Notes: generated by a model not told the origin, from the sequence alone. A stretch of DNA of 64,000 nt from Verrucomicrobiia bacterium (GCA_040380225.1 JBEIJN010000014.1:1995-65994), one strand, 5' to 3'; positions 38,053-61,674 are shown, numbered from the stretch's first letter. Numbers and translations are program-made.

Positions 38053-38099
38053 CTGACAACCGACAACCGACAACTGACTCCCGACCTCCGACCACCAAC
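38053..38099. repeat. CGACAAC / CCGACC short-word array
   Basis: CTGACAACCGACAACCGACAACTGACTCCCGACCTCCGACCACCAAC. Confidence 0.5.
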
Positions 38100-38538: not shown

Positions 38539-39057
38539 TCATTCCAAGTTCTTGACTCCGGAATGCAATCTCCTAACGGCCTCCTCAATGGTAAGTTCAT
38601 GAGTAGGTATTACCAGTTCAGGATGTAAGGGGGGCTCATAGGGGGAATCAATTCCTGTGAACTTCGGAATCATGCCCGCGCGAGCCTTCTTGTAGAGCCC
38701 TTTGGGATCTCGCCCTTCGCAAGTGGAGAGAGGAGTGCTGACATAAACCTCAATGAACGCGACATCGCGCGCCTGACATAGCCCCCTGATTGCCTCCCTT
38801 TCACTTCGGAGGGGCGAAATCAAGGAGCAGATACTCGTGATGCCGGATCGCGCAGCCAGCAGGGCGATCGCCCCAGCGCGACGTATATTCTCCATCCGAT
38901 CCTCGGCTGAAAATCCAAGATCCCTGGATAGTTCCTCGCGCAAACCATCCCCATCTATCATGAGGGGATGAATGCCCTCAGCCTTGAGTTTCGCAGCCAA
39001 TCCATCCGCAAGCGTCGACTTTCCCGCGCCGGATAAACCTGTAAGCCAAATAATCAT
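38539..39057 (-). CDS. cysC: Adenylyl-sulfate (APS) kinase
   Basis: 172 aa. IIWLTGLSGAGKSTLA (P-loop), LDGD-like IDGDGLR, FSAEDRMENIRR, ISPLRSER, GLYKKARAG, FTGIDSPYEPP. Confidence 0.9.
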   Translation of the reverse strand: MIIWLTGLSGAGKSTLADGLAAKLKAEGIHPLMIDGDGLREELSRDLGFSAEDRMENIRRAGAIALLAARSGITSICSLISPLRSEREAIRGLCQARDVAFIEVYVSTPLSTCEGRDPKGLYKKARAGMIPKFTGIDSPYEPPLHPELVIPTHELTIEEAVRRLHSGVKNLE

Positions 39058-39124
39058 GAGCAGAGGATTAGCCGTTTGCTTTTCGGTATGCCAGCCAGAA
39101 GCTGGAAGCTAGGGAAACGAGGAT

Positions 39125-40243
39125 TCAATCGGCAACAAGAACCTCTTCGTAAATGCCCTCAATCCGACGAACAAGATGCCGGATTTCGTATCGCTCCAAA
39201 ATGGTGTTGCGGGCATTCCCTCCCAGAGTGGCCCTCAATCCATCATCCTGAAGCATGCCTTCAAGTGCTCCAGTGAAACCCGCGGCATCACCCGGAGGGA
39301 GCAGAATGGCATCGTGGCCGTTCGTACAGACCTCCGCGATCCCGTCCACCGCCGAGGCAAGCACAGGCAACCCACAGGACATCGCCTCCAGCAGAACCAT
39401 TGGGGTTCCCTCAAAATCGGAAGTCATCAGCAAAGCATCAAAGGCATGATAGAGGGTCAACCGATCGCTTACATGCCCCAGGAAGCGTACCCGGTGACTA
39501 ATTCCAAGCGACGCCACCTTCTCCTTGAGCGCCTCCTCCTCCGGCCCCGTGCCGGCAATCACAAACATAGCGGAGGGATTTCCAGATAGGACTCGCACCG
39601 CAACATCCATGAAGAGCGAAAAATTCTTCTGTGCCACGAGCCTTCCGACCCCGCCGATCACGAAGCACTCACGGGGAATTCCTAGTGCTGCCCTCGCAGC
39701 TTCCCTCGCTCCAGCACTTGCCGGAGAAAAGACCTCCGTATCGATCCCGTTGGGGATCGTTATCACCAGGTCATCCCGCTGATCTTCGCGATCAAGAAGG
39801 TAACGGCGCGTGCTTTCGGAGACGGCGATCACACGATCGGAGCGCCGGTTCCAAAAAGAATCCGCCGCCAAAAGCAGCGGGTTCTTTTCCCTCGAGGCAT
39901 CATTGCACTGGTCATGCACGATGATCGCCGGATGACCGGCCATGATCGCGAGTGGCTTGGCGCAGAGGTTCGCCCCAAACAGATGGAAGTGGAGGATGTC
40001 GTACCCTCCCGAGCGCATCAGTCGCCAAAAATTCGGGAGATAATACGGTGGGAACTTTTCAGGAGAGAGTGAGTGAACGGTGATTCCATTCTTCTCAAAA
40101 GCCTCCGCATAGACCCCCCGCCCGTGCATGCAGGCCACCTCCGGAAGATAACGTGACCTGTCATGGTGCTTAGCCAGTTCAAGCAGGAAGGTCTGAGCTC
40201 CGCCCAGATCCAGACTATCGATCACATGAAGAATCCTCTTCAC
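39125..40243 (-). CDS. Glycosyltransferase family 4
   Basis: 372 aa. ILHVIDSLDLGGAQ N-terminus, EX7E region SDFEGTPMVLLEAMSCGLPV. Confidence 0.8.
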   Translation of the reverse strand: MKRILHVIDSLDLGGAQTFLLELAKHHDRSRYLPEVACMHGRGVYAEAFEKNGITVHSLSPEKFPPYYLPNFWRLMRSGGYDILHFHLFGANLCAKPLAIMAGHPAIIVHDQCNDASREKNPLLLAADSFWNRRSDRVIAVSESTRRYLLDREDQRDDLVITIPNGIDTEVFSPASAGAREAARAALGIPRECFVIGGVGRLVAQKNFSLFMDVAVRVLSGNPSAMFVIAGTGPEEEALKEKVASLGISHRVRFLGHVSDRLTLYHAFDALLMTSDFEGTPMVLLEAMSCGLPVLASAVDGIAEVCTNGHDAILLPPGDAAGFTGALEGMLQDDGLRATLGGNARNTILERYEIRHLVRRIEGIYEEVLVAD

Positions 40244-41322
40244 TTCAATCCCTCCAGAAATGCCTCGGTGTTTTTCCCGTTATCAAGCCACTCGGCGACC
40301 ATCCTTTGCGCCCCGTCCCCCATCCTTTGGGAATCTCCGCCTTCAGCCAGGAGTTCGAGGACTTTCGTGACAAATAGCTCAAAATCCCCCCCTGCGGAAA
40401 AACCGGCACCAAAGGTCTCGATCAAGCCGTCGGGATCTAGTTCCAAGGATAGGATCCCTGCTGCTCCCTGTGCAGCCTGAATCATGACGTTAGGAAAACC
40501 TTCCGTTTCGGAAGTGCTTACCAAGAAGCGCGCCCTGTCGTAGGTCTCTTGGATCTCATGATAGGGAACCCTCTCATGAAAAGTAAGATTGGGCATCCCG
40601 GCGGCGCGGGCGACCACGGATTGCCATAACTCTTCATCCTCCCTGGGGCAGATCATCTCGCAGTGGGCTTCGGGCAATCGTTCCACCAGATCGAGAAAGA
40701 AATGCGGGCGCTTGATATGCTGGCATCTTCCGACCCAGAGCAGATCGATATCTTTCAGCGCCGTCCGGGGCTTCGCTCGCGGGAGGATCAGATTTCGGTA
40801 CATGCCGCAGGAGAGTCCGGCTTGGCCGAAAAGTCTCCTCTGATATTCCGACATGGCGAACCTGATATCGGAGAGTGCGACGCCCCGCTCAAACAGCCTT
40901 CCTTTCCATCCATGGCTTTTTCCGAAGGAACCGTCTATCTCCGTGTCGAGGCCGCAGATGAAGACCAAGCTGTAACCGAAAAGCGGCCTCAGCAGACAGA
41001 GGATATAGAGCCACGCCGTCCATCCCAGCACGCAGACGAATTCGGGACGATACTCAGCCAGCAGGCGCGTGACTTTGGGCAGTGCAATGATGGTATCGGC
41101 CATTCCTCCCGTGTGGAAACGGCCCGCATTCCTTGTCACCACCCCGTTGAAAACCCTGCCGTCCTGCTGGCCGGTATCCCCGCCTGCAATGACGGCCTCA
41201 TGGCCACGCATGGCCAATTCTTTGGCAAGCAACGCCACCTGAAGCTCCGCACCGCCGGAAACACGGGTCGCCAAGGGGTCGAGCGCGTAATGCGCATGGC
41301 TGGAAAGAAAGAAAAACTTCAT
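40240..41322 (-). CDS. GT-B fold glycosyltransferase (GT4-like)
   Basis: MKFFFLSSHAHY..GGAELQV, STSETEGFPNVMIQAAQGAAG. Alternative start at 41364. Its stop overlaps the next gene's start by 4 nt. Confidence 0.6.
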   Translation of the reverse strand: MKFFFLSSHAHYALDPLATRVSGGAELQVALLAKELAMRGHEAVIAGGDTGQQDGRVFNGVVTRNAGRFHTGGMADTIIALPKVTRLLAEYRPEFVCVLGWTAWLYILCLLRPLFGYSLVFICGLDTEIDGSFGKSHGWKGRLFERGVALSDIRFAMSEYQRRLFGQAGLSCGMYRNLILPRAKPRTALKDIDLLWVGRCQHIKRPHFFLDLVERLPEAHCEMICPREDEELWQSVVARAAGMPNLTFHERVPYHEIQETYDRARFLVSTSETEGFPNVMIQAAQGAAGILSLELDPDGLIETFGAGFSAGGDFELFVTKVLELLAEGGDSQRMGDGAQRMVAEWLDNGKNTEAFLEGLK

Positions 41323-41351
41323 GTGCTCTTCCGCGCGTTTCCCCAATGACT

Positions 41352-41861
41352 TCAAGCTTCGCAACGTATCACTCGCGCAGGATTGCCGGCGACAACGGAC
41401 TTTGGAGCCACATCATCGATCACGACCGATCCCGCGCCGATCACAGCCCCCTCTCCCACGCTTATTGGACCAAGAATCAGCGCATTCGCTCCGACATTCA
41501 CATTGTTGGCGAGGACCGGAATCCCCTTTCTGGGCAATCTGTCGCCGATCGTCACCCCCTGCCTCAGCGTGCATCGTGAACCGATAACCGCGGCGGGATG
41601 GACGACCAAGCCCGTGCCGTGGCGGAGACAGAGACCCGCTCCAATATCCGAACGGTAGTCGATCTCGATTCCCATGATCCAATGAACCAACAGCACATAT
41701 AGCCCCAGAATTGGTGATCCAAATATCCAAAGACCGTATGGCAGCTTCCTGATCCGCTGGCATAGTCGGCAAAACAACATCACAAACCTTCCCTTGGGAC
41801 TGCCTTGATTTACATCCCAGTCCTGAAAGATTCCCGCCGTGGATTTGATTTCGTTGTCCAT
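41352..41861 (-). CDS. Hexapeptide-repeat O-acetyltransferase (CysE/WcaB/NodL-like)
   Basis: 169 aa. LbH repeats IGAGLCLRHGTGLVVHPAAVIGSRCTLRQGVTIG...NVNVGANALILGPISVGEGAVIGAGSVV. Confidence 0.75.
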   Translation of the reverse strand: MDNEIKSTAGIFQDWDVNQGSPKGRFVMLFCRLCQRIRKLPYGLWIFGSPILGLYVLLVHWIMGIEIDYRSDIGAGLCLRHGTGLVVHPAAVIGSRCTLRQGVTIGDRLPRKGIPVLANNVNVGANALILGPISVGEGAVIGAGSVVIDDVAPKSVVAGNPARVIRCEA

Positions 41862-41941
41862 ACTTCAAATCATGTGATGAATGGATGCTTGTCGTGATTC
41901 ACATCCATCATGGCAAGTAATGATCCATAACTCCAAAGCAT

Positions 41942-42931
41942 TCACTGGTTCAAAAACAGACGTGCTGCAAACAACCGCAACCAAGGTAGCCCTAGTAACC
42001 GTGTTGGGGCATGCCGACTTAAAGCAGAGATGAGACCCGTCAGAGATTGCCCGGATCTCTGAATCAATGTCTGGTATTCGAGGCCGATTTCATGCCAGGG
42101 GTTCCCGTGGACACGGCCGTAATTGGACACTGTATTTTCAAAAACCCGGCAATATTCATCCCAGTCAATTCCGCCGGGATCCTCCCACGATCGGGCAAGC
42201 ACATCTTCCTCACTAGGCGAGAGCATGGTTCCCAAGAAACGGTGGATATTCCTGCGCCTCACAAGGTTTATGTCGGCATCCCCTTGCAAGTCCCTTCTCA
42301 TGATCGATCCATCATGCACCCTGTATTTGACTAACTTATCCCGAATCATCCCGAAACGATTTTGGGCCGCAATCTCAGACCACAAGGCATAATCCTCAGA
42401 CTTTCGGGAAGCGGCATACCCACCGTATTCGTTTAGGATCCTTTCCCTTCGCATCATCACGGAACAATGAGGCACGGGATTTCTGAAGCACAGATCCCAC
42501 TTAAGCCATGGCGTGGAGAATGGGACCCTCATGACCCCGCGAGGGATCCCTGCCGAGCCTATAATGGTTGCGGCTGATCCAACAGCGTCGATGTGATTAT
42601 TGGCATTCAGGTAATCAAACTGCCGGGCCAACCGACACCTCATGGCAACATCGTCCGCGTCCATTCTCGCAACAAGCGGAGATGACGCGGAGATCAATCC
42701 CTCGTTCAGCGTGGCGACAAGCCCCTTGTTTTCCGAGTGGCGGATCAAGCGGATGCGGATGTCTCGAATCGAGGAAACGATATCAGGGGTCCCGTCGGAA
42801 GATCCGTCATCAATCACCAGCAGTTCAAAATCACGGAAGGTCTGATCCAGTATACTGCCAATGGATTCATGAATGAAATCGGCCGCATTGTACGCCGGCA
42901 TCAGCACTGTAACCAAGGGACTCTTCATCAC
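41942..42931 (-). CDS. Glycosyltransferase family 2
   Basis: VTVLMPAYNAADFIHESIGSILDQTFRDFELLVIDDGSSDGT, RMDADD. Confidence 0.85.
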   Translation of the reverse strand: MMKSPLVTVLMPAYNAADFIHESIGSILDQTFRDFELLVIDDGSSDGTPDIVSSIRDIRIRLIRHSENKGLVATLNEGLISASSPLVARMDADDVAMRCRLARQFDYLNANNHIDAVGSAATIIGSAGIPRGVMRVPFSTPWLKWDLCFRNPVPHCSVMMRRERILNEYGGYAASRKSEDYALWSEIAAQNRFGMIRDKLVKYRVHDGSIMRRDLQGDADINLVRRRNIHRFLGTMLSPSEEDVLARSWEDPGGIDWDEYCRVFENTVSNYGRVHGNPWHEIGLEYQTLIQRSGQSLTGLISALSRHAPTRLLGLPWLRLFAARLFLNQ

Positions 42932-44058
42932 GATAGCACCTCCCGGAAAATCTCCCCGTGGCGACGCATCCAGCCAGTCAGATCAAAAACCTCAACGGCA
43001 CGCTTCCTCGCGGATTCAGATATTGCCAGGCGATTGCCCATGATATGCTCCACCGCATCGGCTAGGTCCCCTGGATTCCCAGCACGATCACAGCTCCACC
43101 CCTGCTCCACCGGAACCAGCACGCCGCATGAATCCGTCACGAGTTCAGGCATCCCTCCGCTCCGCGTTCCGACAACCGGCAAACCGCTGGCCATCGCCTC
43201 GATGGGAACCGTCGGGCAGGGATCGTTGTATTTTGTGTGAAGTAACAGATTGGCGGTGCGATAGATTTCCGGAGCCTCTTCCTGGCCGAATGGAGGGAGG
43301 ATCGTGACGCGCCGATCCAAGCCGCACATCGCCTCCCTTACCTGCACTTCCGCATCCTTCCAGCGAAATTCTCCGGCAATCGTCAGATGCACGTCATGAC
43401 CTCGGGAGAGAAGCTCTCTGAGTGTATCGAGAGCTGATTTGGTTCTGTAGAGCGCATGACTTGTTCCCGCCGCAAGGATGCGCCACGGGCCATCCGGCAA
43501 CGATTGCATTCGGGGAGAAAAGACTTCCGTATCGACGGGATTGACCAGGATCTCGGACGGTACGGTCGATGATCCGAGATAACGCTCGGCACTGATGCGG
43601 GAGAACTCGCTCTGGTTGATGATGAAGTCGGCCTGATTGCGGAGCGCCGCCATCCGGCGGTTGAGCCAGGGATAGAAATCCCCGTAACATCCCGGATAGG
43701 CCACCCCGTTCTGGTTCCAGACAAGCTTGGCGCCCTTGCTTTTTGCCGCCCTGACGACCTCCTCAACCTGTGGTGGCAGGGCACTGCTCACCAGATACAT
43801 CACGTTGAAGTCGTCAAAAGATTCCGGGAAAGCCTTCCGGAGATGGATCAGCTTGATCTCCCCGCCGATGGGACGACCGGCCTTCATGGGAGCAAGTCGA
43901 CCGTAATTGACGGCAGGAACTCCGGATTCCGAAATCCGCACCAGAGAGGCCTTGGATCTTATAGTGATTTTTTCGGGAAAGCGACGGACCCTGCTGCCGA
44001 GTTCCCTAAGGCCGTACAGCAGATCATTCGCCAGCAGTGTCGGTTCGGGCCTTACCAT
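42928..44058 (-). CDS. Glycosyltransferase family 4
   Basis: 376 aa. YNDPCPTVPIEAMASGLPVVGTRSGGMPELV. 4-nt overlap with the downstream GT2. Confidence 0.75.
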   Translation of the reverse strand: MVRPEPTLLANDLLYGLRELGSRVRRFPEKITIRSKASLVRISESGVPAVNYGRLAPMKAGRPIGGEIKLIHLRKAFPESFDDFNVMYLVSSALPPQVEEVVRAAKSKGAKLVWNQNGVAYPGCYGDFYPWLNRRMAALRNQADFIINQSEFSRISAERYLGSSTVPSEILVNPVDTEVFSPRMQSLPDGPWRILAAGTSHALYRTKSALDTLRELLSRGHDVHLTIAGEFRWKDAEVQVREAMCGLDRRVTILPPFGQEEAPEIYRTANLLLHTKYNDPCPTVPIEAMASGLPVVGTRSGGMPELVTDSCGVLVPVEQGWSCDRAGNPGDLADAVEHIMGNRLAISESARKRAVEVFDLTGWMRRHGEIFREVLS

Positions 44059-44864
44059 GGGAGATCACGCCCCAGCAAGCCGGCAAGATCGGCATTCAAA
44101 GGCTTATAAAATTCCGCCAGCATCCTCTCCGCTTCACTTGGAAGAGGCTCCGCACCCCCTCCATCCCGTGCGTGGGGCATTTTCTTGACGGGGACAGGCT
44201 CCAACCCAAGATGCCTCCAACTTCTTGCAAGGTTTTCCTGTGGGGATTCCGTCAACTCCTCCAGAAAAAGCACCAACGATTGTTCACGCGGAAAATGACC
44301 CCACCACTCGCGTAGCAAGTCGGCATACATGCCGCAGCGGACGTAGCGGAGCGGATTATTCCACTGTCGCAGAGCTGATCGACAAAGAGCCGTGCCTGAT
44401 GGATCCGACAGCCACCGGACTGCATTCGTCACCGTTTTGGTGAAATCCGAGAGATCGTCACCCGACTTGCGGAACATCCTGTACTCCGACCAAGCCCTTA
44501 CCACCGGTTCCCTGAAAATGAAGATCAGCCTGGCATCCGGCATCACCTCGGCCGCACGGGCGGGCAAATCGGGATGGAACCAGTACTCCATGCTTGCATC
44601 CCCGCAGACCCATGGGGCGAACGGCCTGACAAAAGGGAAGTTCATCCTCAGACGAAGTTCGCTTCCCGGATAACGGATCATGCTGGCCGGTTCCTTGAAC
44701 GGCCCCCTTCGTACTCGCGGATGAAGGAGCAGTGCGTCAAAGAGGGAGGAGGAGCCGCACTTCGGAGCCCCGGGCATTAGGAAGGAAGGTCGCGTCCTGA
44801 GCGGAGCGGTAAGCAGGCGGCATGCCTTCGAGATCTCGGCGTTGATGTCGGGCTTTTTAGGCAT
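44052..44864 (-). CDS. PAPS-dependent sulfotransferase
   Basis: 5'-PSB loop PGAPKCGSSSLFDALLLHP and 3'-PB element FIFREPVVRAWSEY. Start trimmed to ATG 44864, 2 nt after the upstream stop. Confidence 0.75.
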   Translation of the reverse strand: MPKKPDINAEISKACRLLTAPLRTRPSFLMPGAPKCGSSSLFDALLLHPRVRRGPFKEPASMIRYPGSELRLRMNFPFVRPFAPWVCGDASMEYWFHPDLPARAAEVMPDARLIFIFREPVVRAWSEYRMFRKSGDDLSDFTKTVTNAVRWLSDPSGTALCRSALRQWNNPLRYVRCGMYADLLREWWGHFPREQSLVLFLEELTESPQENLARSWRHLGLEPVPVKKMPHARDGGGAEPLPSEAERMLAEFYKPLNADLAGLLGRDLPW

Positions 44865-44866
44865 GG

Positions 44867-46021
44867 TCAGCTTGCTGGAAGGAAGGATCGAATCCGAGAC
44901 GCGATTTTCCTGCCCACGGCATCCCATGTAAACTCTTTCTCCACCATCGTCCTTCCGGCGCTTCCCATGACGCGCGCCCGGTCCTGATCCTGCAAGAGGG
45001 CGACAATGGCAGAGGCAAACTCCTCCGTATTCCTGGGATCAACAAGCCGGCCGGTCACCCCATCCCTCACACGCTCGGCCCCTGCTCCGAAGGGCGTGGT
45101 GATCACCGGCAACCCGTAGGCGGCGGCATCCAGCGCCAGCATACTTGCCCGCTCCACGCGACTCGGGACACTGACAAGGGCTGCCTTGCGAAAGAGCTGG
45201 TCCAACTCCCCGAGCCTCACCCTTCCGAAAACCCTCATCCCTTCCTGAGCACTCCGAGGCTGTGCTCCAACCACCCAGAGTTCCGCGGAGGGTATCTTCT
45301 GCCGGACTCTTTTGAATGCAGCAGCGAGTTCCTCTCCTCCCTTGATCCCCCAATCCGCTCCGACAAATAGAATCACGGGTTCGGGCGTTGAGGCAGACTC
45401 CTCCAGAAGCGGCAGATCCATGTTGATCCCGGTGGAAACTGTCAGCACTCGTTCCTCGGGAATCCCGTAATCCAAGACGACTGACTTTTCGCAGAAACGA
45501 CTCAGGGTGAAGACCGTCGCCGCCTTCGGGTAAAGAGCAGCTTCTAATCTTATCCATTCTGGTGATGCCGGCGCCGGCGATCCCCCGCCCGGTTGGCGTT
45601 TGTGCGCCTCGCGGGTGTGATCCGTATAGATGAAGAATGGGATTCCCGGATGCGAGGCATCAAACATCGACTGCGTCTGGAAAATGAAAGAGACCCGGGA
45701 AGGATCAATATTCCGCAGGATCCACAACGAGATCAGATCCCATGCCTTCGGTTCCTGGAAAACAAAATCCCAAGGGCTGTGCCTTCCCCGGAGGAGCGGC
45801 ACCAACCGCTTCATGGAGGCCTTGCAGCACAGCCACAGTGAGTGTAACGGAAAGGATGACAGAATATCGCGCGCCGCATCCACGACTTCCAGCTCACACT
45901 CAGGAAACCGCTCCCTCAGCACCCTCTCCATCTTCGCGTTCACGTGTGAGAACGATCCGTATTTGACGAAGATGATCCGATTCGGAATTCCACCGCCAAG
46001 AGGAGAGGATGATGAGTTCAT
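44867..46021 (-). CDS. Glycosyltransferase family 4
   Basis: 384 aa. VSVPSRVERASMLALDAAAYGLPVITTPFGAGAERV. Confidence 0.7.
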   Translation of the reverse strand: MNSSSSPLGGGIPNRIIFVKYGSFSHVNAKMERVLRERFPECELEVVDAARDILSSFPLHSLWLCCKASMKRLVPLLRGRHSPWDFVFQEPKAWDLISLWILRNIDPSRVSFIFQTQSMFDASHPGIPFFIYTDHTREAHKRQPGGGSPAPASPEWIRLEAALYPKAATVFTLSRFCEKSVVLDYGIPEERVLTVSTGINMDLPLLEESASTPEPVILFVGADWGIKGGEELAAAFKRVRQKIPSAELWVVGAQPRSAQEGMRVFGRVRLGELDQLFRKAALVSVPSRVERASMLALDAAAYGLPVITTPFGAGAERVRDGVTGRLVDPRNTEEFASAIVALLQDQDRARVMGSAGRTMVEKEFTWDAVGRKIASRIRSFLPAS

Positions 46022-47933: not shown

Positions 47934-47982
47934 GCGCGGCACTCCTTGGGTAACAACGATGTGGAGATCATGGCAAGGTTCA

Positions 47983-50114: not shown

Positions 50115-50168
50115 TGCTCGAAACTGACTCCTAAAGCCCGCTCAAGAAAGGCTCTTTTCATGGTATTT

Positions 50169-52097: not shown

Positions 52098-52108
52098 GCC
52101 GGCCGTCT

Positions 52109-54046: not shown

Positions 54047-55122
54047 TCAGATGAAGATGCCCGCTCAATGACGCCGGCCAATCGCTCGGCAAAACCTTGG
54101 GCCGTCCACTTTGCCCCAAGAAGCGCATTCCTCGCGGCAAGCACACTGGATGTCGACATGGTTCCCTGAATCGCCGCCGCAAACTCTTCCGCATTGTCAG
54201 GGCTCACCAGTGAAACTTCTTTCCCGTCGCGAATGACATCGCTCCCCCACCATCCCGAGGTTTTGGTGATGACCACGGGGGCTTCGCACATCATCGCCTG
54301 CATGGCCACACTCTGCCCGGACGGCTGAAGGCTTTCCCTAAGTGGAACCAACACGCACGCGGCCATCTGGTAAAGATCCCGGAGCCCTTCATCGCTTAGC
54401 GCGTTTTCCTTCCAGTCACCACGACGCCAGAGGACATTCTTCGGCAAATTGTCAGGGGCATCCAGACGTGTGACCACGGTGAAGGGAATCGCCGGAAGGA
54501 TCCTTGCCGTCTCCACAAGCGTGGCGTAGTCACGACGACCATCGTTCCCCACGGCAAGAACTCCACTGCGGTTTCCGTCGATAGACGGAGGGATCCAGAA
54601 AGTCTCATCCACTCCAAACCAACCCGATTGGATTTCATCAGCCTCGGGCTTGAAACGCTTCCTGATCTCAGCCTCCTCTGAATCTGCGAAGAGCACGGCC
54701 TGCATCCGGCCCAGCAGTCGGGCGGTGATGATCCTGCGTACCTCTGATCCTATAGGATAATTGACAGCTCCACAGAGAATTCCCGCGAGAGGCTTCTTGA
54801 ACAGGCCCAGTTCTTTCCAAAGAGCCAGACCGAAGGAAATCTCGGTCGCTGTTGCAACCACCACATCGTAGCCCTTCAACTTCGGAAGCAGACGACGCGT
54901 CCGGGCAATCCAATCGGCCGAAGTTCTGGGAGGAACAAGTATGCCCAAGAGCCCCCCTGCGATCAGGCCGGTCAGCGGATCTGCCGGTTCGGCATCCACC
55001 TCGAGGCAATCCACAGTCCATCCGTGGCGAGAGGATAACTCCCTGGCCCCATAAAAGAAATCGGACGGCCCGTCGGTTCCCCGAAGATGCCGTCCGCCAG
55101 CGTAGACAAAGGCAACCTTCAT
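54043..55122 (-). CDS. GT-B fold glycosyltransferase (GT4-like)
   Basis: Start trimmed to MKVAFVYAGG (ATGA overlap with the upstream stop at 55119-55122). LQPSGQSVAMQAMMCEAPVV. Confidence 0.55.
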   Translation of the reverse strand: MKVAFVYAGGRHLRGTDGPSDFFYGARELSSRHGWTVDCLEVDAEPADPLTGLIAGGLLGILVPPRTSADWIARTRRLLPKLKGYDVVVATATEISFGLALWKELGLFKKPLAGILCGAVNYPIGSEVRRIITARLLGRMQAVLFADSEEAEIRKRFKPEADEIQSGWFGVDETFWIPPSIDGNRSGVLAVGNDGRRDYATLVETARILPAIPFTVVTRLDAPDNLPKNVLWRRGDWKENALSDEGLRDLYQMAACVLVPLRESLQPSGQSVAMQAMMCEAPVVITKTSGWWGSDVIRDGKEVSLVSPDNAEEFAAAIQGTMSTSSVLAARNALLGAKWTAQGFAERLAGVIERASSSE

Positions 55123-55955
55123 TTCATTCGGAAGAGCCTCCACCTGATTCCCTCCATAACTTTCCCAATCACCCCCGCCATCCAGGCATCCCATCCGATC
55201 CAGTATCCGAGGCATCGACCGGGCTTGCTCAGAATCCCGAAATGCCTCGGAGAAGCCTCCCTGAGCCTCGGTAGGAATACCCGGGGACTTCCGCTCTTGT
55301 TCAATGAAGCCGACAACGCCTCGTAATCTGGATGCCGCCCGTGGAGGATTTTTACCGACCCCCTTCCCGCGAACGCAGGCATGATGAATCGGAAGTTGTA
55401 TTCGGGAGGCAGAGTCGCGAAGGAAACATCACTCTGCCACAGCGCATCCCTCAGCGACGGTTGGTCATCGATCACGCCGGTGCTCGTGAGTCTTTCCTGA
55501 TAAAGCTTCTCCCAGAGTGAAAAAAGCGAGCGAGTGCGGTCATTCAGATGATAGGCAATCACCCCGCTGTTGCATTCGGGAAAGGTCGGCGGAACCGACG
55601 AGGTTGCGGTAAATCTCATCGGGGCGTGGGCCATGGCGACATCATGCCGATCCAAGATGGCAAACATCTCGGGAACCGGCTCGCAGAGCCATGTATCGGT
55701 ATCGAGAAACACAGTTCTTTCAAATGGCGTCGAAAGAAGCGGCCCGATCTTATCGGAGAAATTAAACTGCGGGTTTGCTATCGCGAGATGATGATCAAAC
55801 AGATCTTTCGGTGGCGATAGATCGGATGCGATCGCTATCGGAACCCCAGGCATCACCGAGCGGATACGCACGGCAGATCGGCATGACTCATCAAGGAATC
55901 TGCGCCCTGTAGCGATAAAGTAAAATCCGGTGGATGATTCCTTCATACTATCCAT
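55119..55955 (-). CDS. GT-A fold, GT8-like nucleotide-sugar transferase
   Basis: Start trimmed to MDSMKESS (TAATG overlap with the upstream stop). FLDTDTW (DxD), CNSGVIAY, DDQPSL. Confidence 0.5.
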   Translation of the reverse strand: MDSMKESSTGFYFIATGRRFLDESCRSAVRIRSVMPGVPIAIASDLSPPKDLFDHHLAIANPQFNFSDKIGPLLSTPFERTVFLDTDTWLCEPVPEMFAILDRHDVAMAHAPMRFTATSSVPPTFPECNSGVIAYHLNDRTRSLFSLWEKLYQERLTSTGVIDDQPSLRDALWQSDVSFATLPPEYNFRFIMPAFAGRGSVKILHGRHPDYEALSASLNKSGSPRVFLPRLREASPRHFGILSKPGRCLGYWIGWDAWMAGVIGKVMEGIRWRLFRMK

Positions 55956-57202
55956 TACCGAGTATTTACACCTCGTCGGAAGTGCCTGTGATAAATCTCC
56001 TTGGCCACGCAGGAAGCCATCCTCGAGACAAACTTGCCGGAAGAGCAACCCTTGGCGACGATTCGGTTCGGGGAGAAAGCTGCGAGAAGAAGCCCAGCCC
56101 CCAACCCTCCGGAAGTTTCATAACCATATTGTGGGAGAAGCTTACCAAAAAGCCCCTCGATGAGGTCTTTTTGCTTATCGCTCAATTCCGATTTCCAGCG
56201 TCCCGACATCTTGGGGCTAACCGTTCCGGAAGCCATCCCATCGGAATCCATTCTCGAAGTATTGGACCCAGCAGAGCGCCCGTAAACCGAGGGAGTGAGA
56301 AGAACCTTGTCAAATCCTATGCCCAGGAACTCAGCGATCCGCTTCATCTCGGCGGAGGTGTTGGCAACGAGATCCTCGTAACGCACGATATGATGAGAAG
56401 CGCTTAGGATTCTGTCGTTTGAAAGTCCAAACCTCATCGAGCTATGGATCGCCTCCATTTCATTGATCAGGGAGAAAGAGCGAAACTTCTTGTGCTGCTT
56501 GCGGGACTGCGCGGCAATGATCGCACCAGGATGACGCACGATGTGCAGGAATTTAGCCTCAGGGAACACTGATGCCAGGCGAAGGGCCTCCTCGGCATTA
56601 CCCGTCGATTTCTCAACCCATCCTTTTTTCACTTGGCCCGAAGGCGCCATCTCCTCCTCGATACTGCAGTATGCCCATGCCATGGCCGAGAGCAGCGACT
56701 CGGAAGAGTCCAAGCCTCTCTTCGTGGTGGCCAGTTCCAGCATCGCGGCGATCCGCGGATAGGCAGCGTGTTCCCTACCCGCAATCCATGTCGGCTCCTC
56801 CCCCGCGATGGGCATCACCAGGGAATGAATCATCGTCTCCAGAAGGGAGGATCGACGGTGTTCCCGCGGGCATTTCATCACAAGATCCATAAATCGGATC
56901 CCATGACCATCGGTTGGTAGCGTGTAAAGCTCAGGATGGCCGTCGAGCAGATTTCTCAAAAGAGTCGTCCCCGACTTGTGGGAGCCGCCGATGAATATCG
57001 GTCTCTGCACGACAGACTCGGGGACAAGCGTGGGATGCAGCCCGGCCGTTGACTGCTCCGCCCGCGCTCTCAGGCTGCTCACCTGATTTCGGAAACGTTC
57101 CGCGGAAGGGTGAGGGGAGACAAGCAGGAATCTCTCGCCGGCGGAGCGGGCTTCATCCAGCGATGCGTCTATATTCTTAAGTGATTGTTCCAGTTCCATC
57201 AT
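55955..57202 (-). CDS. PAPS-dependent sulfotransferase with an N-terminal ~75-aa extension
   Basis: 5'-PSB loop FIGGSHKSGTTLLRNLLDGHP and 3'-PB element FLHIVRHPGAIIAAQS. Confidence 0.75.
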   Translation of the reverse strand: MMELEQSLKNIDASLDEARSAGERFLLVSPHPSAERFRNQVSSLRARAEQSTAGLHPTLVPESVVQRPIFIGGSHKSGTTLLRNLLDGHPELYTLPTDGHGIRFMDLVMKCPREHRRSSLLETMIHSLVMPIAGEEPTWIAGREHAAYPRIAAMLELATTKRGLDSSESLLSAMAWAYCSIEEEMAPSGQVKKGWVEKSTGNAEEALRLASVFPEAKFLHIVRHPGAIIAAQSRKQHKKFRSFSLINEMEAIHSSMRFGLSNDRILSASHHIVRYEDLVANTSAEMKRIAEFLGIGFDKVLLTPSVYGRSAGSNTSRMDSDGMASGTVSPKMSGRWKSELSDKQKDLIEGLFGKLLPQYGYETSGGLGAGLLLAAFSPNRIVAKGCSSGKFVSRMASCVAKEIYHRHFRRGVNTR

Positions 57203-57224
57203 TGGTGCCAGGTCATTTCATTAT

Positions 57225-58460
57225 TCAGTCCAGCACGATCCGTGCAGGCATGCCCGCAATCATCGGATCACATCCTCCGTGACGCATTGCGCGTGATATA
57301 TTGCCATCTCCATCGCAGATCCAGTTTTCGGCGGCTCCGGCTTTGGACAAGAGACCGATGTTTTTGAATATCTGCTCCTCGCTGGTGTCATGGGATTTCA
57401 TATGGACGCAGATTTCGGGAGCTCCCGAGTATGCGGGCAGGCGACATAGAGTGGAACGCCGCGCTTCCGAGATCCAAGCCACATCGGCGACGCGAACACC
57501 ATCCCCGGTCTCGATCGGCACATCGACCAGCACATGCCCGCCCTGCAGCGACCGGGCCAGAAGCGAGCTGATAGCACCGACCATTTCGGCACGTCTCGAT
57601 CCCGTACCTGCTGAAAAATGCGATGCGCCGTGAAGATGAAGCCCCTCCGTGTAGAAGTCCGCCGCCTCCAGCGCGGGCGCATCGCAGACCACCCTTCCTT
57701 GCTGCAGGACGATGGCCCGGTTGCAGAGTTGCTTCACACTCTCGGCGGCATGACTCACGAAGAGAATCGTCACCCCTGAGTTCTTCGTCGCCTCGATCTT
57801 CTCAAGGCACTTCTCCTGGAACGCCGCATCCCCCACGGCCAGCACTTCGTCGAGGATCAGGATCTCCGGATCCAGATGAGCCGCCACGGAGAATGCCAAC
57901 CGGACTCGCATGCCGCTAGAGTAACGCTTGACCGGCGTGTCCATGAACTTCTCGATCTCGGCAAAGGAAAGGATCTGGTCATAGCGATCATCGATTTCCT
58001 TCTTTTTTAGCCCAAGGATACTTCCGTTGAGATAGACATTCTCCCTGCCGGTGAGCTCCTGGTGAAATCCGGTTCCCACCTCCAGGAGACTTGCCACGCG
58101 CCCCTTCATGTATGCTTTTCCCTCGGTGGGAGCAGTTATCCTGGAGAGAAGCTTCAACAGCGTGGACTTGCCGGAGCCATTGCGCCCCATGATTCCCACG
58201 ATGTCACCTTGATGGACTTCAAAGCTTATATTCTTCAGAGCCCAGAAGTCATAGGCCTCCGGCAAGCTGTCCGTATTCTGTTCATGGACACGGCTATTGG
58301 GGTCTGTTTTTCCCAGCTTCCTTGAGACATAGCTCTCGATCTGATCGACCAGCATCTTCCGGGTGATCACCCCCAGGCGGTATTTTTTGGAAAGGCCCTC
58401 GGCACGAATCACGCACTCCTTAAGTGCATTATTCGATATTGTTAATTGGTCATTATGCAT
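57225..58460 (-). CDS. wzt: Polysaccharide ABC exporter ATP-binding protein (Wzt/TagH-like) with an atypical C-terminal domain
   Basis: Walker A GRNGSGKST, signature YSSGMRVRLAFS, Walker B ILILDEVLAVGD. The C-terminal ~135 aa resemble the Uma2/DUF820 fold (see findings). Confidence 0.85.
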   Translation of the reverse strand: MHNDQLTISNNALKECVIRAEGLSKKYRLGVITRKMLVDQIESYVSRKLGKTDPNSRVHEQNTDSLPEAYDFWALKNISFEVHQGDIVGIMGRNGSGKSTLLKLLSRITAPTEGKAYMKGRVASLLEVGTGFHQELTGRENVYLNGSILGLKKKEIDDRYDQILSFAEIEKFMDTPVKRYSSGMRVRLAFSVAAHLDPEILILDEVLAVGDAAFQEKCLEKIEATKNSGVTILFVSHAAESVKQLCNRAIVLQQGRVVCDAPALEAADFYTEGLHLHGASHFSAGTGSRRAEMVGAISSLLARSLQGGHVLVDVPIETGDGVRVADVAWISEARRSTLCRLPAYSGAPEICVHMKSHDTSEEQIFKNIGLLSKAGAAENWICDGDGNISRAMRHGGCDPMIAGMPARIVLD

Positions 58461-58521
58461 TGTTTATTCCTGCCTTAGAAAATCACTTGAATGTATTTTT
58501 CGGTGCTCCTATGCAGCAGAA

Positions 58522-58553
58522 CTCAGGTTTCATGTTTCAGGTTTCAGATTTCG
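58522..58553 (+). repeat. GTTTCAG-type heptamer array in the wzm-wzt spacer
   Basis: CTCAGGTTTCATGTTTCAGGTTTCAGATTTCG, 12 nt downstream of the wzm stop. Confidence 0.65.
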
Positions 58554-58564
58554 TCTCTTTTCCC

Positions 58565-59422
58565 CTACGCCGTATCCACGCTCGTCTGCTCGACTTTGTT
58601 GAAGACGATCAACCCCAGAAAAAGGATCCCGATGCTCAGTGTTGCGCTGATCACGACCTGCCCGAAGGTAACGGTCCCCTGCCCCATGAATGCGCATCGA
58701 AATGCCTCGATCACAAAGACAATCGGGTTCCAATCATACATCCATCGGTAGCTCTCAGGAACCACCTTCAGTGGATAGACCACACAGCTTGCGTACATCC
58801 AGAGCTGCATAAAGAAACCAAGCAGCACCTGGAGATCTCGAAACCTGCTTGTCACTCCAGAAATCAGGCAACCCACCCCCAGACCGAGTGCAGCCATCTG
58901 GATGATGAGTACCGGTAATACGATGATCCTCCAGTCAAGGCGGATAGGCGCCCCGTGGAAGTAAAACCAGAGATAGAACGCAAAGAAGAGGACTAATCCC
59001 ATGGCCAGTCCCACGAGATTGGTGATCAGTTGGGAGATCGGCACGGCCAATCGCGGAAAGTAGACTTTATCGAACATTCCTTGGTTCGAGGTGAAGGTGT
59101 TCGCCGTCTTGGTCACACACTCAGAGAAATACCTCCAGCAGACCGTTCCGGAGAGATAGAAGAGAATCGGCGGAATTTCCCCAGTGGAGATCTTGGCAAC
59201 CCTTGTGAAGACCAGCACGAACATAAGGCTCTGCAGCAGCGGCTGCAGCACATACCAGAAGGATCCCAGAACCGTCTGCTTATACTGGGAGACGAAGTCC
59301 CTGTGGGCCATCAGCCCGATCATCTCCCGGTAGTCCCAGAGTTCCTTGAAGGGGATGTACAGGAGATTACGCCGGGGAGTGATGACCGTAGTCCAGGATT
59401 CGGAAGTTGAAGATGAGGACAT
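58565..59422 (-). CDS. wzm: ABC-2 type polysaccharide exporter permease (Wzm/KpsM/TagG-like)
   Basis: 285 aa, 6 TM. ELWDYREMIGLMAHRDFVSQYKQTVLGSFWYVLQPLL, NPIVFVIEAFR. Confidence 0.8.
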   Translation of the reverse strand: MSSSSTSESWTTVITPRRNLLYIPFKELWDYREMIGLMAHRDFVSQYKQTVLGSFWYVLQPLLQSLMFVLVFTRVAKISTGEIPPILFYLSGTVCWRYFSECVTKTANTFTSNQGMFDKVYFPRLAVPISQLITNLVGLAMGLVLFFAFYLWFYFHGAPIRLDWRIIVLPVLIIQMAALGLGVGCLISGVTSRFRDLQVLLGFFMQLWMYASCVVYPLKVVPESYRWMYDWNPIVFVIEAFRCAFMGQGTVTFGQVVISATLSIGILFLGLIVFNKVEQTSVDTA

Positions 59423-59536
59423 GGGGAATAGTGGAAAGTAGAAAGTTAAAATTGAAAATAAGTGGGGTAGGAGATCAATAGCATGGATATGAAATCATGA
59501 GCTAGTCCGCCTTCATCGAGTTTGTGCAGAAGGTTT

Positions 59537-59971
59537 TCAAATCACGCAAAGATTTTTCTCTTCCGCATCGTTCACTGCAGAAATGGGAATTTTTGTATCA
59601 AATGTCACGAGTCGCCCCTGGCGAGACACTGCCAATCCTAGCAGGTAAAGATCCGTTAAATATCGTGAACTATGAATGCGCTCGCATGCAAAGATGGCTT
59701 TGTTCCGAAGGGAAATGGAATCACCCCAAAATTCATGATCCGTCGAATCGACGAACTGGCGCATCTGGCCGATCAGATCACCGGGCAAGAACTGCATTGT
59801 CCGGCTGTATCCGGGATTGGACATGATGCGTACAGCTCCGTTTTCCGTGAGCGGACAACTGGCCCATCCATCCCCTCCATGCATTGCCCACCAACCATGC
59901 GCCCTCTCGTGAAATGAATGATCCGGATCAAAGAGCGCAATGATCACATTGATATCCAACAATGCCCGCAT
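59537..59971 (-). CDS. vapC: PIN-domain toxin VapC
   Basis: 144 aa. MRALLDINVIIALFDPDH, CPLTENG, YLTDLYLLGLAVSRQGRLVTFD. Confidence 0.8.
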   Translation of the reverse strand: MRALLDINVIIALFDPDHSFHERAHGWWAMHGGDGWASCPLTENGAVRIMSNPGYSRTMQFLPGDLIGQMRQFVDSTDHEFWGDSISLRNKAIFACERIHSSRYLTDLYLLGLAVSRQGRLVTFDTKIPISAVNDAEEKNLCVI

Positions 59972-59975
59972 CGCT

Positions 59976-60215
59976 TCAGATTCCCTCCTGACCCATCAAC
60001 TTTCGGGCATGCTCCAGAGTCACAACCTCACCGCGCGACTGCAGCAATGGAACCCCCCCGCGAGTCACCGGCGATCTCTTTTTTTCGTGCGCGGGAATCG
60101 TCAACCCTCGTCGAGCTAAGACGGAAAGAATGTGGCCGGCGGTACTCCCTTCTCGCTGCGCAAGTTCTTTCGCGGCCTGCAAAACATCTTCCTCTATATC
60201 CAACGTGGTTCTCAT
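59976..60215 (-). CDS. vapB: VapB-type antitoxin
   Basis: 79 aa. MRTTLDIEEDVLQAAKELAQREG is the typical MRTTLDIDDxL antitoxin N-terminus. It lies 4 nt upstream of vapC. Confidence 0.7.
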   Translation of the reverse strand: MRTTLDIEEDVLQAAKELAQREGSTAGHILSVLARRGLTIPAHEKKRSPVTRGGVPLLQSRGEVVTLEHARKLMGQEGI

Positions 60216-60388
60216 GCATCTGATGATAGTGCATCAATCTATCCAAGTCAAACCAAGTTGTGACACCCCTTGTCTTGTTTACCGATAACCGATTACCCAT
60301 TCCCAATCCCCTTTAAAGACCTCCATGCTCTTCATGGTTATTCCATTAAGATTTTTCATTTTCCGCCTATCCCTCCAGTCTTCCGCGC

Positions 60389-60575
60389 CGCTTCCCAGCG
60401 ACTTGGTTCAGGGTACTTTGAACTCGCTTGCTTTGCCTCGGCCTCTCCCTAGGCCCTCGTCCTACGGACTGCTTTGCAGGCTTCATCGTGCCTCCCGGCA
60501 CTCGATGATCGCAAGGCTCGACCCTCTGGGGCTGCTTTCAGCAGTCCTACTCGGTCTTCCCCAGACCTCGTTTCA
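60389..60575 (+). repeat. Full unit of the structured intergenic repeat, bounded by two hairpin+(T)TGGTTCA/TCGTTTCA modules
   Basis: CGC-TTCCCA-GCG-ACTTGGTTCA (60389-60410); TTTGAACTCGCTTGCT (60417-60432, identical to 63980-63995). Hairpins at 60440-60455, 60483-60508 and 60532-60544. GGTCT-TCCCC-AGACC-TCGTTTCA (60553-60575). Confidence 0.65.
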
Positions 60576-60734
60576 CTATCCCCATTTTCCAATTTCCTTA
60601 TTTCTAATTTCTAGATTTCCCAATTTTTCCCTCTCTACTCATTCATCATTCATCATTCATCATTTTGCATTTTCCCCTCCCCTCCCGTGAAGCCGTGGCG
60701 CCCTCTGGGCTACGATTTCATCGTAGTCTACCGC

Positions 60735-60817
60735 GTGCCATCCCAGGCGCTTGGTTCAAGTTTCAGCTTTTCATCTCTGGCACTCGACGCTCGACCCTCG
60801 ACCCTCGACTCAGCTCG
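60735..60817 (+). repeat. Hairpin+TTGGTTCA module, heptamer array and CTCGAC array overlapping the 3' end of the GT2 gene
   Basis: GTGCC-ATCCCA-GGCGC-TTGGTTCA (60735-60758), AGTTTCAGCTTTTCATC, CACTCGACGCTCGACCCTCGACCCTCGACTCAGCTCG (60781-60817). Confidence 0.65.
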
Positions 60818-61629
60818 TCCGCCCACCCCTGCACCATCAGCGGAGGATCCTTGAAGAGGTTCCAGCAGAGGTGATCGAAGATAGAGCGGGGCAATCTGAA
60901 GGGCTGTTTGGAGAGAAGATTACGGATCTGGAAAGAGAGGTTATTCCTATCCAGGGGGCCATTGTGACGCCGGCCAATCCGGGCAATCTCTCTCATCCGC
61001 TTCCACCCTCCCGTGTTGGTCTTTGTATCCTCATAGTAACGGATATTGGCCAGATGCTGAGGAATCGTTACGACCTTCCCGATTTTCGAGAGCTTCAGGA
61101 GCAGATCCCAGTCCATCGCATAGTGCAGAGACTCATCCAGGCCCCCCACTTTCCAGTAGGCATCACGCCTGAAGAACATGGCCGGCTGGACTGCTCCAAA
61201 GGCCCATGACAAACGTTTTGGGCAAAACTCACGAAAAGGAACTTTTTTGATAATACTCCCGTCCAGATCTGTCTTGGCTCCAACTCCGTAGATCACGACT
61301 GTATCCGGGTTTTTAGAGAATGCCTCTTCAACCGCATGGAGAGCCCCTGGGAGAAGGATATCGTCAGAGTTTAACCACCCAACGATCTCTCCAGTTGCCA
61401 CCCTCATTCCCTTATTGATCGCATCACTCTGGCCTCGGTCAGGCTCTACAAAGAGCTTCAGCTTCCCCTCCGTCTCCGCCTTCTTCCAGATCTCGATCAC
61501 CCCGTCAGTCGACCCTGCATCATAGACGATGTGCTCTAGATCCGGGTACTGCTGGACATCCAGCGAGGCCAGCATCTCAGGAGCAAAGACAGCCTGATTC
61601 AGGCTGGGGGTAATAATGGAGATCTTCAT
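60763..61629 (-). CDS. Glycosyltransferase family 2
   Basis: MKISIITPSLNQAVFAPEMLASLDVQQYPDLEHIVYDAGSTDG, LNSDD. Alternative start at 61668. The last ~18 codons are encoded by the repeat arrays. Confidence 0.8.
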   Translation of the reverse strand: MKISIITPSLNQAVFAPEMLASLDVQQYPDLEHIVYDAGSTDGVIEIWKKAETEGKLKLFVEPDRGQSDAINKGMRVATGEIVGWLNSDDILLPGALHAVEEAFSKNPDTVVIYGVGAKTDLDGSIIKKVPFREFCPKRLSWAFGAVQPAMFFRRDAYWKVGGLDESLHYAMDWDLLLKLSKIGKVVTIPQHLANIRYYEDTKTNTGGWKRMREIARIGRRHNGPLDRNNLSFQIRNLLSKQPFRLPRSIFDHLCWNLFKDPPLMVQGWADELSRGSRVERRVPEMKS

Positions 61630-61674
61630 TTCACTATTTTTCTCGGTCTCTACACTGTTGGATTTCACAATTTT

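Follow-up and report, generated by a model that had tools for sequence, protein, structure and literature searches.

A putative ATP-binding cassette exporter-dependent gene cluster for a sulfated, acetylated surface glycan in an uncultured Verrucomicrobiota bacterium

What is made by a long, one-directional array of glycosyltransferase, acyltransferase and sulfotransferase genes beside an O-antigen-type exporter, and how does the exporter recognise the product? This question is raised by positions 38539–61668 of a 64,000-nt stretch (the window, analysed at its full length) from the assembly of a Verrucomicrobiia bacterium (GCA_040380225.1, JBEIJN010000014.1:1995-65994). We propose that this locus is an ATP-binding cassette (ABC) transporter-dependent cluster for a sulfated, acetylated heteropolysaccharide surface glycan in an uncultured Verrucomicrobiota bacterium, with a probability of about 0.78. 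The proposal draws on domain assignments and motifs, operon-like packing and the conservation in relatives of the backbone genes, one sulfotransferase gene (ST1) and cysC; from these we infer the substrates, the order of the steps and the destination of the product.

Open reading frame (ORF) calls and a start-codon survey placed all called genes between 38539 and 61668 on the minus strand, as claimed in a first-pass annotation of the window. Nineteen co-directional genes span 38539–59422 (Table 1), comprising an adenosine 5'-phosphosulfate (APS) kinase, 10 glycosyltransferases, a hexapeptide acetyltransferase, an AT3 acyltransferase, two AT3-SGNH proteins, two sulfotransferases and Wzm/Wzt, and an eleventh glycosyltransferase (60763–61629) is separated from them by an inserted toxin-antitoxin pair. 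The nine junctions annotated as overlapping all matched ORF coordinates and start-codon candidates, and gaps of 54–104 nt occur at 39057/39125, 41861/41942, 50114/50169 and 58460/58565. The locus is also less GC-rich than its flank, as had been judged by eye (55.4% in the cluster vs 59.7% in 1–38538; 63% vs 78% at third codon positions). However, it is not one uninterrupted glycan operon, because wzm is separated from the last GT2 gene by genes for a PIN toxin and an antitoxin and by roughly 550 nt of non-coding DNA. The inference of one translationally coupled operon was therefore overstated: the overlaps are real, but the toxin-antitoxin pair detaches the last GT2 gene and the decoration genes are dispensable in relatives, leaving an operon-like cluster of 21–23 kb. 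A promoter and terminator scan was uninformative, all terminator-like sites in the cluster being intragenic and none intergenic, with promoter-like sites fewer than in shuffled sequences; Rfam gave no match in the cluster.

When a polysaccharide cluster contains both sulfotransferase genes and genes for 3'-phosphoadenosine 5'-phosphosulfate (PAPS) synthesis, this has been called a hallmark of sulfated polysaccharide production (PMC11641403). The stand-alone APS kinase exceeds the curated NCBIfam cutoff (TIGR00455, 202.5 bits vs 138.7). ST1 matched human heparan sulfate 3-O-sulfotransferase 3A1 (PDB 1T8U/6XKG, E=3e-13), and the alignment showed that it retains a PKxG(S/T) lysine loop in the form PKCGSS, a glutamate (in KEP) where that enzyme has its catalytic base, and the 3'-phosphate-binding (3'-PB) motif REPVVRAWS. 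The second sulfotransferase, ST2, contains both the 5'-phosphosulfate-binding loop (GGSHKSGTT) and the 3'-PB motif (VRHPGAIIAAQ), both of which, like GGSHKSGTTLLRN, are invariant in 22 homologues with identities down to 29%; its family profile matched TPST1/2 and the CurM/OLS sulfotransferases (1e-17 to 1e-21), and NCBIfam matched ST2 weakly to the fucose sulfotransferase NoeE. The annotation of two sulfotransferases with PAPS-binding loops thus survives, because the motifs of ST1 and ST2 are kept together with their family matches and the APS kinase lies above its cutoff. Conversely, the two proteins had been called non-homologous, but both match sulfotransferase Pfam families and pairwise BLAST aligned their 3'-PB region, and that region only (E=0.011), so that we regard them as very distant members of one superfamily. 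Scanning GTDB genomes with the ST2 profile recovered only sulfotransferases of about 30% identity, in unrelated metagenome-assembled genomes.

We compared the window with related loci, labelled L003–L031, which are sampled loci or contigs carrying related wzm/wzt genes. L023, a 37-kb metagenome contig, is collinear with the window and occupies the same chromosomal site, with 92–94% nucleotide identity in the housekeeping flank (window 33752–38074, L023 16662–20810) as against 76–87% in the cluster. It keeps Wzt, the GT8-like gene, GT4f, GT4e, GT2w, Unk1, GT4d, ST1, GT4c, GT2a (51%), GT4b, GT4a and, at the same cluster end, the APS kinase (92%), and lacks ST2, both AT3-SGNH genes, the AT3 gene and the hexapeptide gene. 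Synteny thus held for the backbone, ST1 and the APS kinase, while decorations varied. L015 has one AT3-SGNH gene, the AT3 gene and ST1 but no ST2; L026 and L027 are further variants with an ST1-type gene (269–270 aa) in the same position; and in L020 and L003 two genes, for a sulfotransferase of about 250 aa and for an ST2 homologue, separate wzt from the GT8-like gene. The order of the backbone genes is kept across L015, L023, L026 and L027, and ST1 copies are 85–90% identical in L015 and L023. Because ST2 and the acyltransferases are missing or vary in relatives while the backbone, ST1 and cysC are conserved, ST2, the three AT3 genes and the hexapeptide gene look like a serotype-like variable decoration layer on a conserved backbone. 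ST2 itself, not present between wzt and the GT8-like gene in L015, L023 and L026, would accordingly be a variable accessory gene.

High-identity flanks around a diverged cluster are a pattern typical of surface-glycan loci. This contrast, together with a gene-by-gene mosaic of protein identities to relatives (51–99%), suggests that recombination or diversifying selection may have acted on the locus. The comparisons also indicate that the rarity of dedicated sulfated-glycan pathways had been overstated, since clusters with the backbone and ST1 occur in at least four related metagenome contigs and sulfotransferase or PAPS genes stand beside wzm/wzt in six more sampled loci. A third, small Sulfotransfer_1-type gene (241–275 aa), not present in the window, was found directly after wzt in L003 (6495–7220) and L020 (11239–12024) and between wzm and wzt in L030 (9201–10028); its position recalls a sulfotransferase-domain ORF after wzt in Aeromonas salmonicida (PMC4483657).

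The Wzm/Wzt exporter was confirmed by ABC2_membrane and ABC_tran matches and by the Wzt motifs GRNGSGKST, YSSGM and ILILDE. The best solved relative of Wzt is the O-antigen Wzt of Aquifex aeolicus (E=2.5e-64), although the alignment covers the nucleotide-binding domain only and ends at residue 277. An AlphaFold2 model of the last 132 residues (predicted local distance difference test score 90.7) shows an αβββαβ domain, for which the top Foldseek matches were 9Y1L, 1WDJ, 3OT2 and 6OKH (E=1e-7 to 5e-6, TM-score 0.60–0.71, probability 1.00), and the best matches were all Uma2/DUF820 restriction-endonuclease-like proteins. A sequence profile of the domain matched 9Y1L (E=1e-6), tblastn retrieved genes annotated as 'Uma2 family endonuclease' on Salinibacter plasmids (5e-9), and Pfam Uma2 gave sub-cutoff matches only, in two Wzt homologues. 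Neither Pfam nor the structural search matched the window Wzt to Wzt_C or a carbohydrate-binding domain. As modelled, the C-terminal domain of Wzt therefore has a Uma2/DUF820 fold (PD-(D/E)xK family) instead of a β-sandwich carbohydrate-binding domain.

The Uma2-like domain is common to more than 100 Wzt proteins of about 400 aa (57–92% overall identity), including those of L015, L023 and L026 (70–78% identical to that of the window). Relative to 9Y1L, the P-D/E and later E-x-W positions are kept, whereas at V-E the domains of Wzt have H, S or N; with one acidic residue of the nuclease motif not maintained, the domain seems likelier to bind or regulate than to act catalytically. We found no link between Wzt and Uma2/DUF820 in the literature searched, where such a tail appears undescribed. 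Pfam detected no methyltransferase, kinase or Kdo-transferase domain in 38539–61668 that could serve as a chain terminator of the WbdD (kinase/methyltransferase) or WbbB (Kdo-transferase) type. To our knowledge, the β-sandwich carbohydrate-binding Wzt domain occurs only in terminator-dependent systems. The locus and its relatives offer a handle on how O-antigen-type ABC exporters recognise substrates without a classical carbohydrate-binding domain. In some relatives the wzm-wzt pair is split, by a gene for a 23S_rRNA_IVP four-helix-bundle protein in L003 (4628–4993) and L029 (9571–9936) and by ISL3 transposase fragments in L028 (8997–9465).

The nuclease-like replacement domain is genomically linked to sulfation in the sampled Uma2-type loci, with sulfation genes within 10 kb in 11 of 13, many of them interrelated; the sample consisted of loci with a Uma2-type Wzt only, the window among them, and had no comparison set of other Wzt types. 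Seven loci whose Wzt is at least 69% identical to that of the window (the window itself, L003, L015, L020, L023, L026 and L027) have one or more sulfotransferase genes within this distance, and the window and L023 also an APS kinase gene. At lower Wzt identities, there is a sulfotransferase gene between wzm and wzt in L030 (67%), two sulfotransferase genes within 10 kb in L016 (Terrimicrobiaceae, 62%), cysD and cysN/C adjoining wzm in L028 (61%) and an APS kinase gene adjoining wzm in L029 (61%). No sulfation gene was seen within 10 kb in L018 (58%), which has a Methyltransf_21 gene after wzt, and none was recognised in L031 (60%). Given the relatedness of many loci and a sample confined to this Wzt type, the association is a lead and not a result. 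It would be consistent with the Uma2-tailed Wzt being a distinct, undescribed class of ABC exporter dedicated to sulfated glycans, whose tail recognises the sulfated chain or its end, or senses PAPS or 3'-phosphoadenosine 5'-phosphate, coupling export to sulfation, an idea that we consider unlikely at present. If true, it would mean that sulfated surface glycans are widespread in uncultured Verrucomicrobiota and not a cyanobacterial or marine rarity.

The backbone would be assembled by up to eleven glycosyltransferases, a count that stands because the two ORFs without a Pfam match are still glycosyltransferase-like. Pfam assigned 17 of the cluster's 19 genes and the last GT2 gene, including six GT4-type and three GT2-type glycosyltransferases, one of them weak in each class, and profiles resolved the remaining two ORFs (Unk1 and Unk2) as glycosyltransferase-like. 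For Unk1, a Pfam search at E≤5 gave just Glyco_trans_1_4 at E=0.26, which is not usable, and a single-sequence PDB search gave no match; copies in L015 and L023 are 72–84% identical over 371 aa. Unk2 had no Pfam match even at E≤5, yet its family numbers 2526 representative homologues, and among 31 scanned, 15 matched Glyco_transf_8 and 17 Nucleotid_trans, which, with its motifs and the profile match to glycogenin, bears out the earlier GT8-like label. Unk2 lies directly after wzt in L015, L023 and L026, while one or two sulfotransferase genes intervene in the window and in L003/L020, and GT4f belongs to a conserved wzm-wzt-GT8like-GT4f module. The position of the GT2b homologue in L020 indicates that GT2b was probably adjacent to wzm ancestrally.

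All four predicted O-acyltransferases (one hexapeptide, one AT3 and two AT3-SGNH) were matched by Pfam. The AT3-SGNH genes are tandem paralogues, 56% identical; both proteins have both domains above the Pfam cutoff and contain GDSN and DKAH/DATH motifs (DGLRAVAV..YHA, GDSN and DKAH in paralogue 1). The single AT3-SGNH protein of L015 is nearer to paralogue 2 (85%) than to paralogue 1 (57%). The AT3 gene is 91% identical in L015 and is not found in L023, which likewise has no ORF matching the hexapeptide gene, nucleotide similarity to L023 lapsing at about 41326–42782.

Table 1. Features of the cluster and other window genes discussed in the text. Where the ORF scanned with Pfam extends further, its end is given in brackets.
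Feature	Position	Strand	Evidence	Remarks
rmlB (11531–12595), rmlC (13381–13932), rmlA (13987–14868)	11531–14868	-	GDP_Man_Dehyd/Epimerase, dTDP_sugar_isom and NTP_transferase matches	24 kb from cluster
cysC-type stand-alone APS kinase (PAPS from APS)	38539–39057	-	APS_kinase 1e-57; P-loop GLSGAGKST	
GT4a, GT4 glycosyltransferase	39125–40243	-	Glycos_transf_1 3e-35, Glyco_transf_4 2e-20	L023 86% identical
GT4b, GT4 glycosyltransferase	40240–41322	-	Glyco_trans_4_4 4.5e-10	Start between 41322 and 41364; L023 91% identical
Hexapeptide-repeat O-acetyltransferase (EpsC/WcaB/CysE-like)	41352–41861	-	Hexapep 1.8e-10; NCBIfam EpsC 3.8e-31, WcaB 6.8e-25, both sub-cutoff	Predicted cytoplasmic
GT2a, GT2 glycosyltransferase	41942–42928 (ORF to 42931)	-	Glycos_transf_2 1.4e-29	L023 only 51% identical
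GT4c, GT4 glycosyltransferase	42928–44058	-	Glyco_trans_1_4 6.7e-18	L023 83% identical
ST1, heparan-sulfate-3-O-sulfotransferase-like	44052–44864 (alternative start 44927)	-	Sulfotransfer_1 3e-8, 33.7 bits vs cutoff 22	
GT4d, GT4 glycosyltransferase	44867–46021	-	Glyco_trans_1_4 1.9e-25	
Unk1, divergent GT-B (GT4-like), 371 aa	46018–47133	-	hhalign 89%, E=2.3e-6 vs window GT4 alignment	Match in C-terminal half
GT2w, weak GT2-like GT-A protein	47130–47933 (ORF to 48023)	-	Glycos_transf_2 4.6e-4, below cutoff	L015 95% identical
AT3 membrane O-acyltransferase without SGNH domain	47983–49128 (ORF to 49140)	-	Acyl_transf_3 4e-25	
GT4e, GT4-like glycosyltransferase	49137–50069 (ORF to 50114)	-	Weak Glyco_trans_1_4 5e-6	L015 99%, L023 82% identical
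AT3-SGNH paralogue 1 (OafA/OafB architecture)	50169–52097	-	Acyl_transf_3 2e-30, SGNH 1.6e-20	
AT3-SGNH paralogue 2	52109–54046	-	Acyl_transf_3 1.2e-32, SGNH 2e-25	L015 85% identical; not in L023
GT4f, GT4-like glycosyltransferase	54043–55122 (ORF to 55215)	-	Glyco_trans_1_4 2.7e-11	L015, L020, L023 72–84% identical
Unk2, GT8/glycogenin-like GT-A, 278 aa	55119–55955	-	DxD (FLDTDTW) and NSGV motifs; family profile vs glycogenin E=3e-4	
ST2, Sulfotransfer_3 (TPST/CurM-like) sulfotransferase	55955–57202	-	Sulfotransfer_3 6e-27, 95.7 bits vs cutoff 27	
Wzt ATPase	57225–58460	-	ABC_tran 7.7e-24	Nucleotide-binding domain residues ~68–277; Uma2-like C-domain residues 280–411 (57228–57623)
Wzm ABC-2 permease	58565–59422	-	ABC2_membrane 4.8e-20; NCBIfam galactan Wzm 9e-15, KpsM 3e-14, both sub-cutoff	
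VapBC-like toxin-antitoxin pair	59537–60215	-	PIN toxin 59537–59971 (PIN 1.8e-4); antitoxin 59976–60215, 79 aa	Not part of the pathway
GT2b, GT2 glycosyltransferase	60763–61629 (ORF to 61668)	-	Glycos_transf_2 1.2e-21	L020 87% identical, directly upstream of wzm

In the proposed pathway, an unlinked polyprenyl-phosphate transferase would prime the chain, which the glycosyltransferases would extend on the cytoplasmic face of the membrane. The cluster's APS kinase would convert APS to PAPS, allowing the conserved ST1 and the variable ST2 to sulfate the lipid-linked glycan in the cytoplasm, where the hexapeptide transferase may acetylate it. The finished anionic chain would be exported by Wzm/Wzt and O-acetylated in the periplasm by the AT3 and the two AT3-SGNH proteins, as by OafA/OafB (PMC7448272). 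It would then probably be ligated to lipid A-core as O-antigen, at about even odds against a capsule or exopolysaccharide.

Several observations weigh against this proposal. ATP sulfurylase, PAP phosphatase, the initiating transferase, WaaL and a Wza/KpsD-type exporter are all lacking in the 64-kb window, so that both the PAPS supply chain and the route to a destination are incomplete there. The first-pass annotation had likewise listed no initiator, Wzx/Wzy, ligase or outer-membrane exporter, and indeed no ORF of at least 180 aa elsewhere in the window matches these families or has multiple transmembrane-like segments. Three of the 11 glycosyltransferases are backed by weak or profile-only evidence, and eleven are many for a single ABC-type repeat unit. 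The closest solved relatives of ST2 act on tyrosine or acyl-ACP, not on sugars. Finally, the glycosyltransferases, acyltransferases and transporter all fall below NCBIfam curated cutoffs, which only the APS kinase exceeds, and for this reason the specific sugars cannot be named.

The ST2 relatives open the possibility that one or both sulfotransferases act on a lipid, a peptide or a small molecule and are merely co-located with the glycan genes. We find this barely credible, given that ST1 is closest to carbohydrate 3-O-sulfotransferases, that ST2 matches NoeE, if weakly, and that both genes are embedded among glycosyltransferase genes with stop/start overlaps and keep their placement in relatives. 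The surplus of glycosyltransferases could instead mean that the stretch encodes parts of at least two glycans, such as a repeat with its primer or adaptor, or two polymers served by the same exporter, which would also fit the mosaic of identities and the four intergenic gaps. Nevertheless, with a single exporter, nine overlapping junctions and a backbone order conserved in four relatives, this seems improbable. A sulfated, acetylated heteropolysaccharide thus remains our preferred reading, and the question becomes where it goes. A tentative alternative of some weight is that, with the same biosynthetic steps, the product is not a lipopolysaccharide O-antigen but a capsule kept on a lipid anchor or a released exopolysaccharide, leaving through an unlinked outer-membrane exporter: the published sulfated ABC-dependent polymers are capsules (PMC11766843, PMC11641403), sulfated exopolymers are secreted by members of the Kiritimatiellae, also Verrucomicrobiota (PMC7356697), the KpsM and galactan Wzm models give Wzm roughly equal scores, and the window has no waaL. 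However, the KpsM similarity amounts to 53.5 bits against a cutoff of 300, no KpsE-, KpsD-, KpsC-, KpsS- or Wza-type gene was found in the window, and among solved structures Wzt comes closest to an O-antigen exporter.

A further alternative concerns chain termination. In E. coli O9a, the gene for WbdD, which caps chains with methyl-phosphate, sits immediately after wzt. ST2 occupies the same place in the window, and by analogy with the O9a WbdD/Wzt module it might add a terminal sulfate cap that ends growth and is read by the Uma2-like domain of Wzt. Relatives that would fit this scheme are L003 and L020, where sulfotransferase genes come immediately after wzt, and L030, where one separates wzm from wzt; so would the wbsalmo cluster of A. 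salmonicida, an ABC-dependent O-antigen locus with a 438-aa Wzt and a sulfotransferase-domain ORF immediately after wzt, for which no sulfate was found in the O-antigen repeat unit (PMC4483657). Yet L015, L023 and L026 have the same Wzt C-domain without a sulfotransferase gene between wzt and the GT8-like gene, and in L018 it is a Methyltransf_21 gene that follows wzt. One form of the idea, a cap read by a Wzt carbohydrate-binding module, was rejected, as the C-domain is not such a module and close relatives with the same Wzt lack ST2; we keep the scheme only as a decidedly improbable rival to the preferred pathway, in which ST2 is a variable decoration enzyme.

The combination of an ABC transporter-dependent pathway with two sulfotransferases and four acyltransferases had not been recognised as a described system. 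That view was overstated, because the literature contains ABC-transporter capsule clusters with sulfotransferases and PAPS genes from both Cobetia marina KMM 1449 (PMC11766843) and Vibrio sp. KMM 8419 (PMC11641403), although with Kps-type export and a full cysDNC set. Like the window locus, they unite an ABC transporter, glycosyltransferases, sulfotransferase(s) and PAPS-synthesis genes, with rml genes present, and the Vibrio polymer is also O-acylated, as predicted here. Unlike it, they come from marine Gammaproteobacteria and use KpsMTED/KpsCS export and full cysDN(C)/cysQ, whereas the Verrucomicrobiota locus has Wzm/Wzt and only cysC. With the ABC O-antigen pathways of E. coli O8/O9a, Klebsiella O-types and A. 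aeolicus, the locus shares Wzm and Wzt, assembly of the entire chain by cytoplasmic glycosyltransferases whose genes adjoin those of the transporter, the lack of Wzx/Wzy and a C-terminal Wzt extension, but that extension has the predicted Uma2/DUF820 fold and not a β-sandwich carbohydrate-binding one, and no kinase/methyltransferase terminator accompanies it (PMC9445017). The locus also differs from these pathways in its two sulfotransferases, its APS kinase and far more separate glycosyltransferases. Synechan follows the Wzx/Wzy route, with polysaccharide export proteins and dedicated regulators, and is not known to use an ABC exporter. The xss cluster for this sulfated exopolysaccharide of Synechocystis PCC 6803 resembles the window locus in being a dedicated sulfated-polysaccharide cluster with several sulfotransferases and many glycosyltransferases (PMC8205485). 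The AT3-SGNH proteins share with Salmonella OafA/OafB the two-domain architecture, the AT3 Arg/His motif, the SGNH GDS and DxxH motifs and a surface-glycan role (PMC7448272), but here two tandem paralogues and an AT3-only protein all lie inside the biosynthesis cluster.

What is new in the locus is therefore Wzm/Wzt-type export, a Verrucomicrobiota host, the heavy decoration load and the non-canonical Wzt tail. Bacterial sulfated polysaccharides, also wanted as biomaterials, are still treated as unusual, and the synechan study calls them unique, among bacteria, to cyanobacteria (PMC8205485); that Verrucomicrobiota, too, are able to produce sulfated exopolymers is shown by Pontiella, of the class Kiritimatiellae (PMC7356697). 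Judging from the locus and its relatives, a sulfated and acetylated surface glycan exported by an ABC transporter would appear to be encoded routinely in an uncultured lineage of Verrucomicrobiota, with a core of conserved sulfotransferase and APS kinase, further sulfation and acetylation forming a serotype-like variable layer.

As to the host, its homoserine dehydrogenase is 82–95% identical to metagenome proteins and 63–69% identical to the best named ones, from Chthoniobacterales, Terrimicrobiaceae and Terrimicrobium, placing its nearest named relatives, as judged from this protein, in the Chthoniobacterales/Terrimicrobiaceae. Mla genes in the window indicate a diderm envelope. Because rmlB, rmlC and rmlA occur in the window and rmlBAC lies directly upstream of wzm in L016, rhamnose may be a component of the glycan, with dTDP-rhamnose possibly supplied by the rml genes; rmlD was not found among the window ORFs scanned. 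A plus-strand ORF (12750–13355) lies between rmlB and rmlC.

The VapBC-like pair beside wzm is an insertion, since in L020 the GT2b homologue abuts wzm directly. L015 likewise has MazE/PIN pairs on the upstream side of wzm, and in L026 a PIN gene is found some 8.5 kb upstream of it. Beyond the cluster, positions 61675–63861 carry an AAA_14/DUF4143 ATPase gene (61675–62817) and a VapB/VapC pair (63176–63861), which together give the variable end the look of a small island of selfish or defence-type genes; in L003, too, the related cluster is flanked or interrupted by AAA_14/DUF4143 genes. Related clusters share, at their borders, a conserved non-coding element about 150 nt long (window ~60457–60604, L015 8813–8965, L023 16255–16318, L003 4454–4502), in L015 and L023 with the opposite orientation relative to the cluster from that in the window. 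It has no Rfam match, folds better than shuffled sequences (z=-4.4) and shows one possible compensatory pair between the window and L015 copies, and may represent an RNA or a small mobile repeat.

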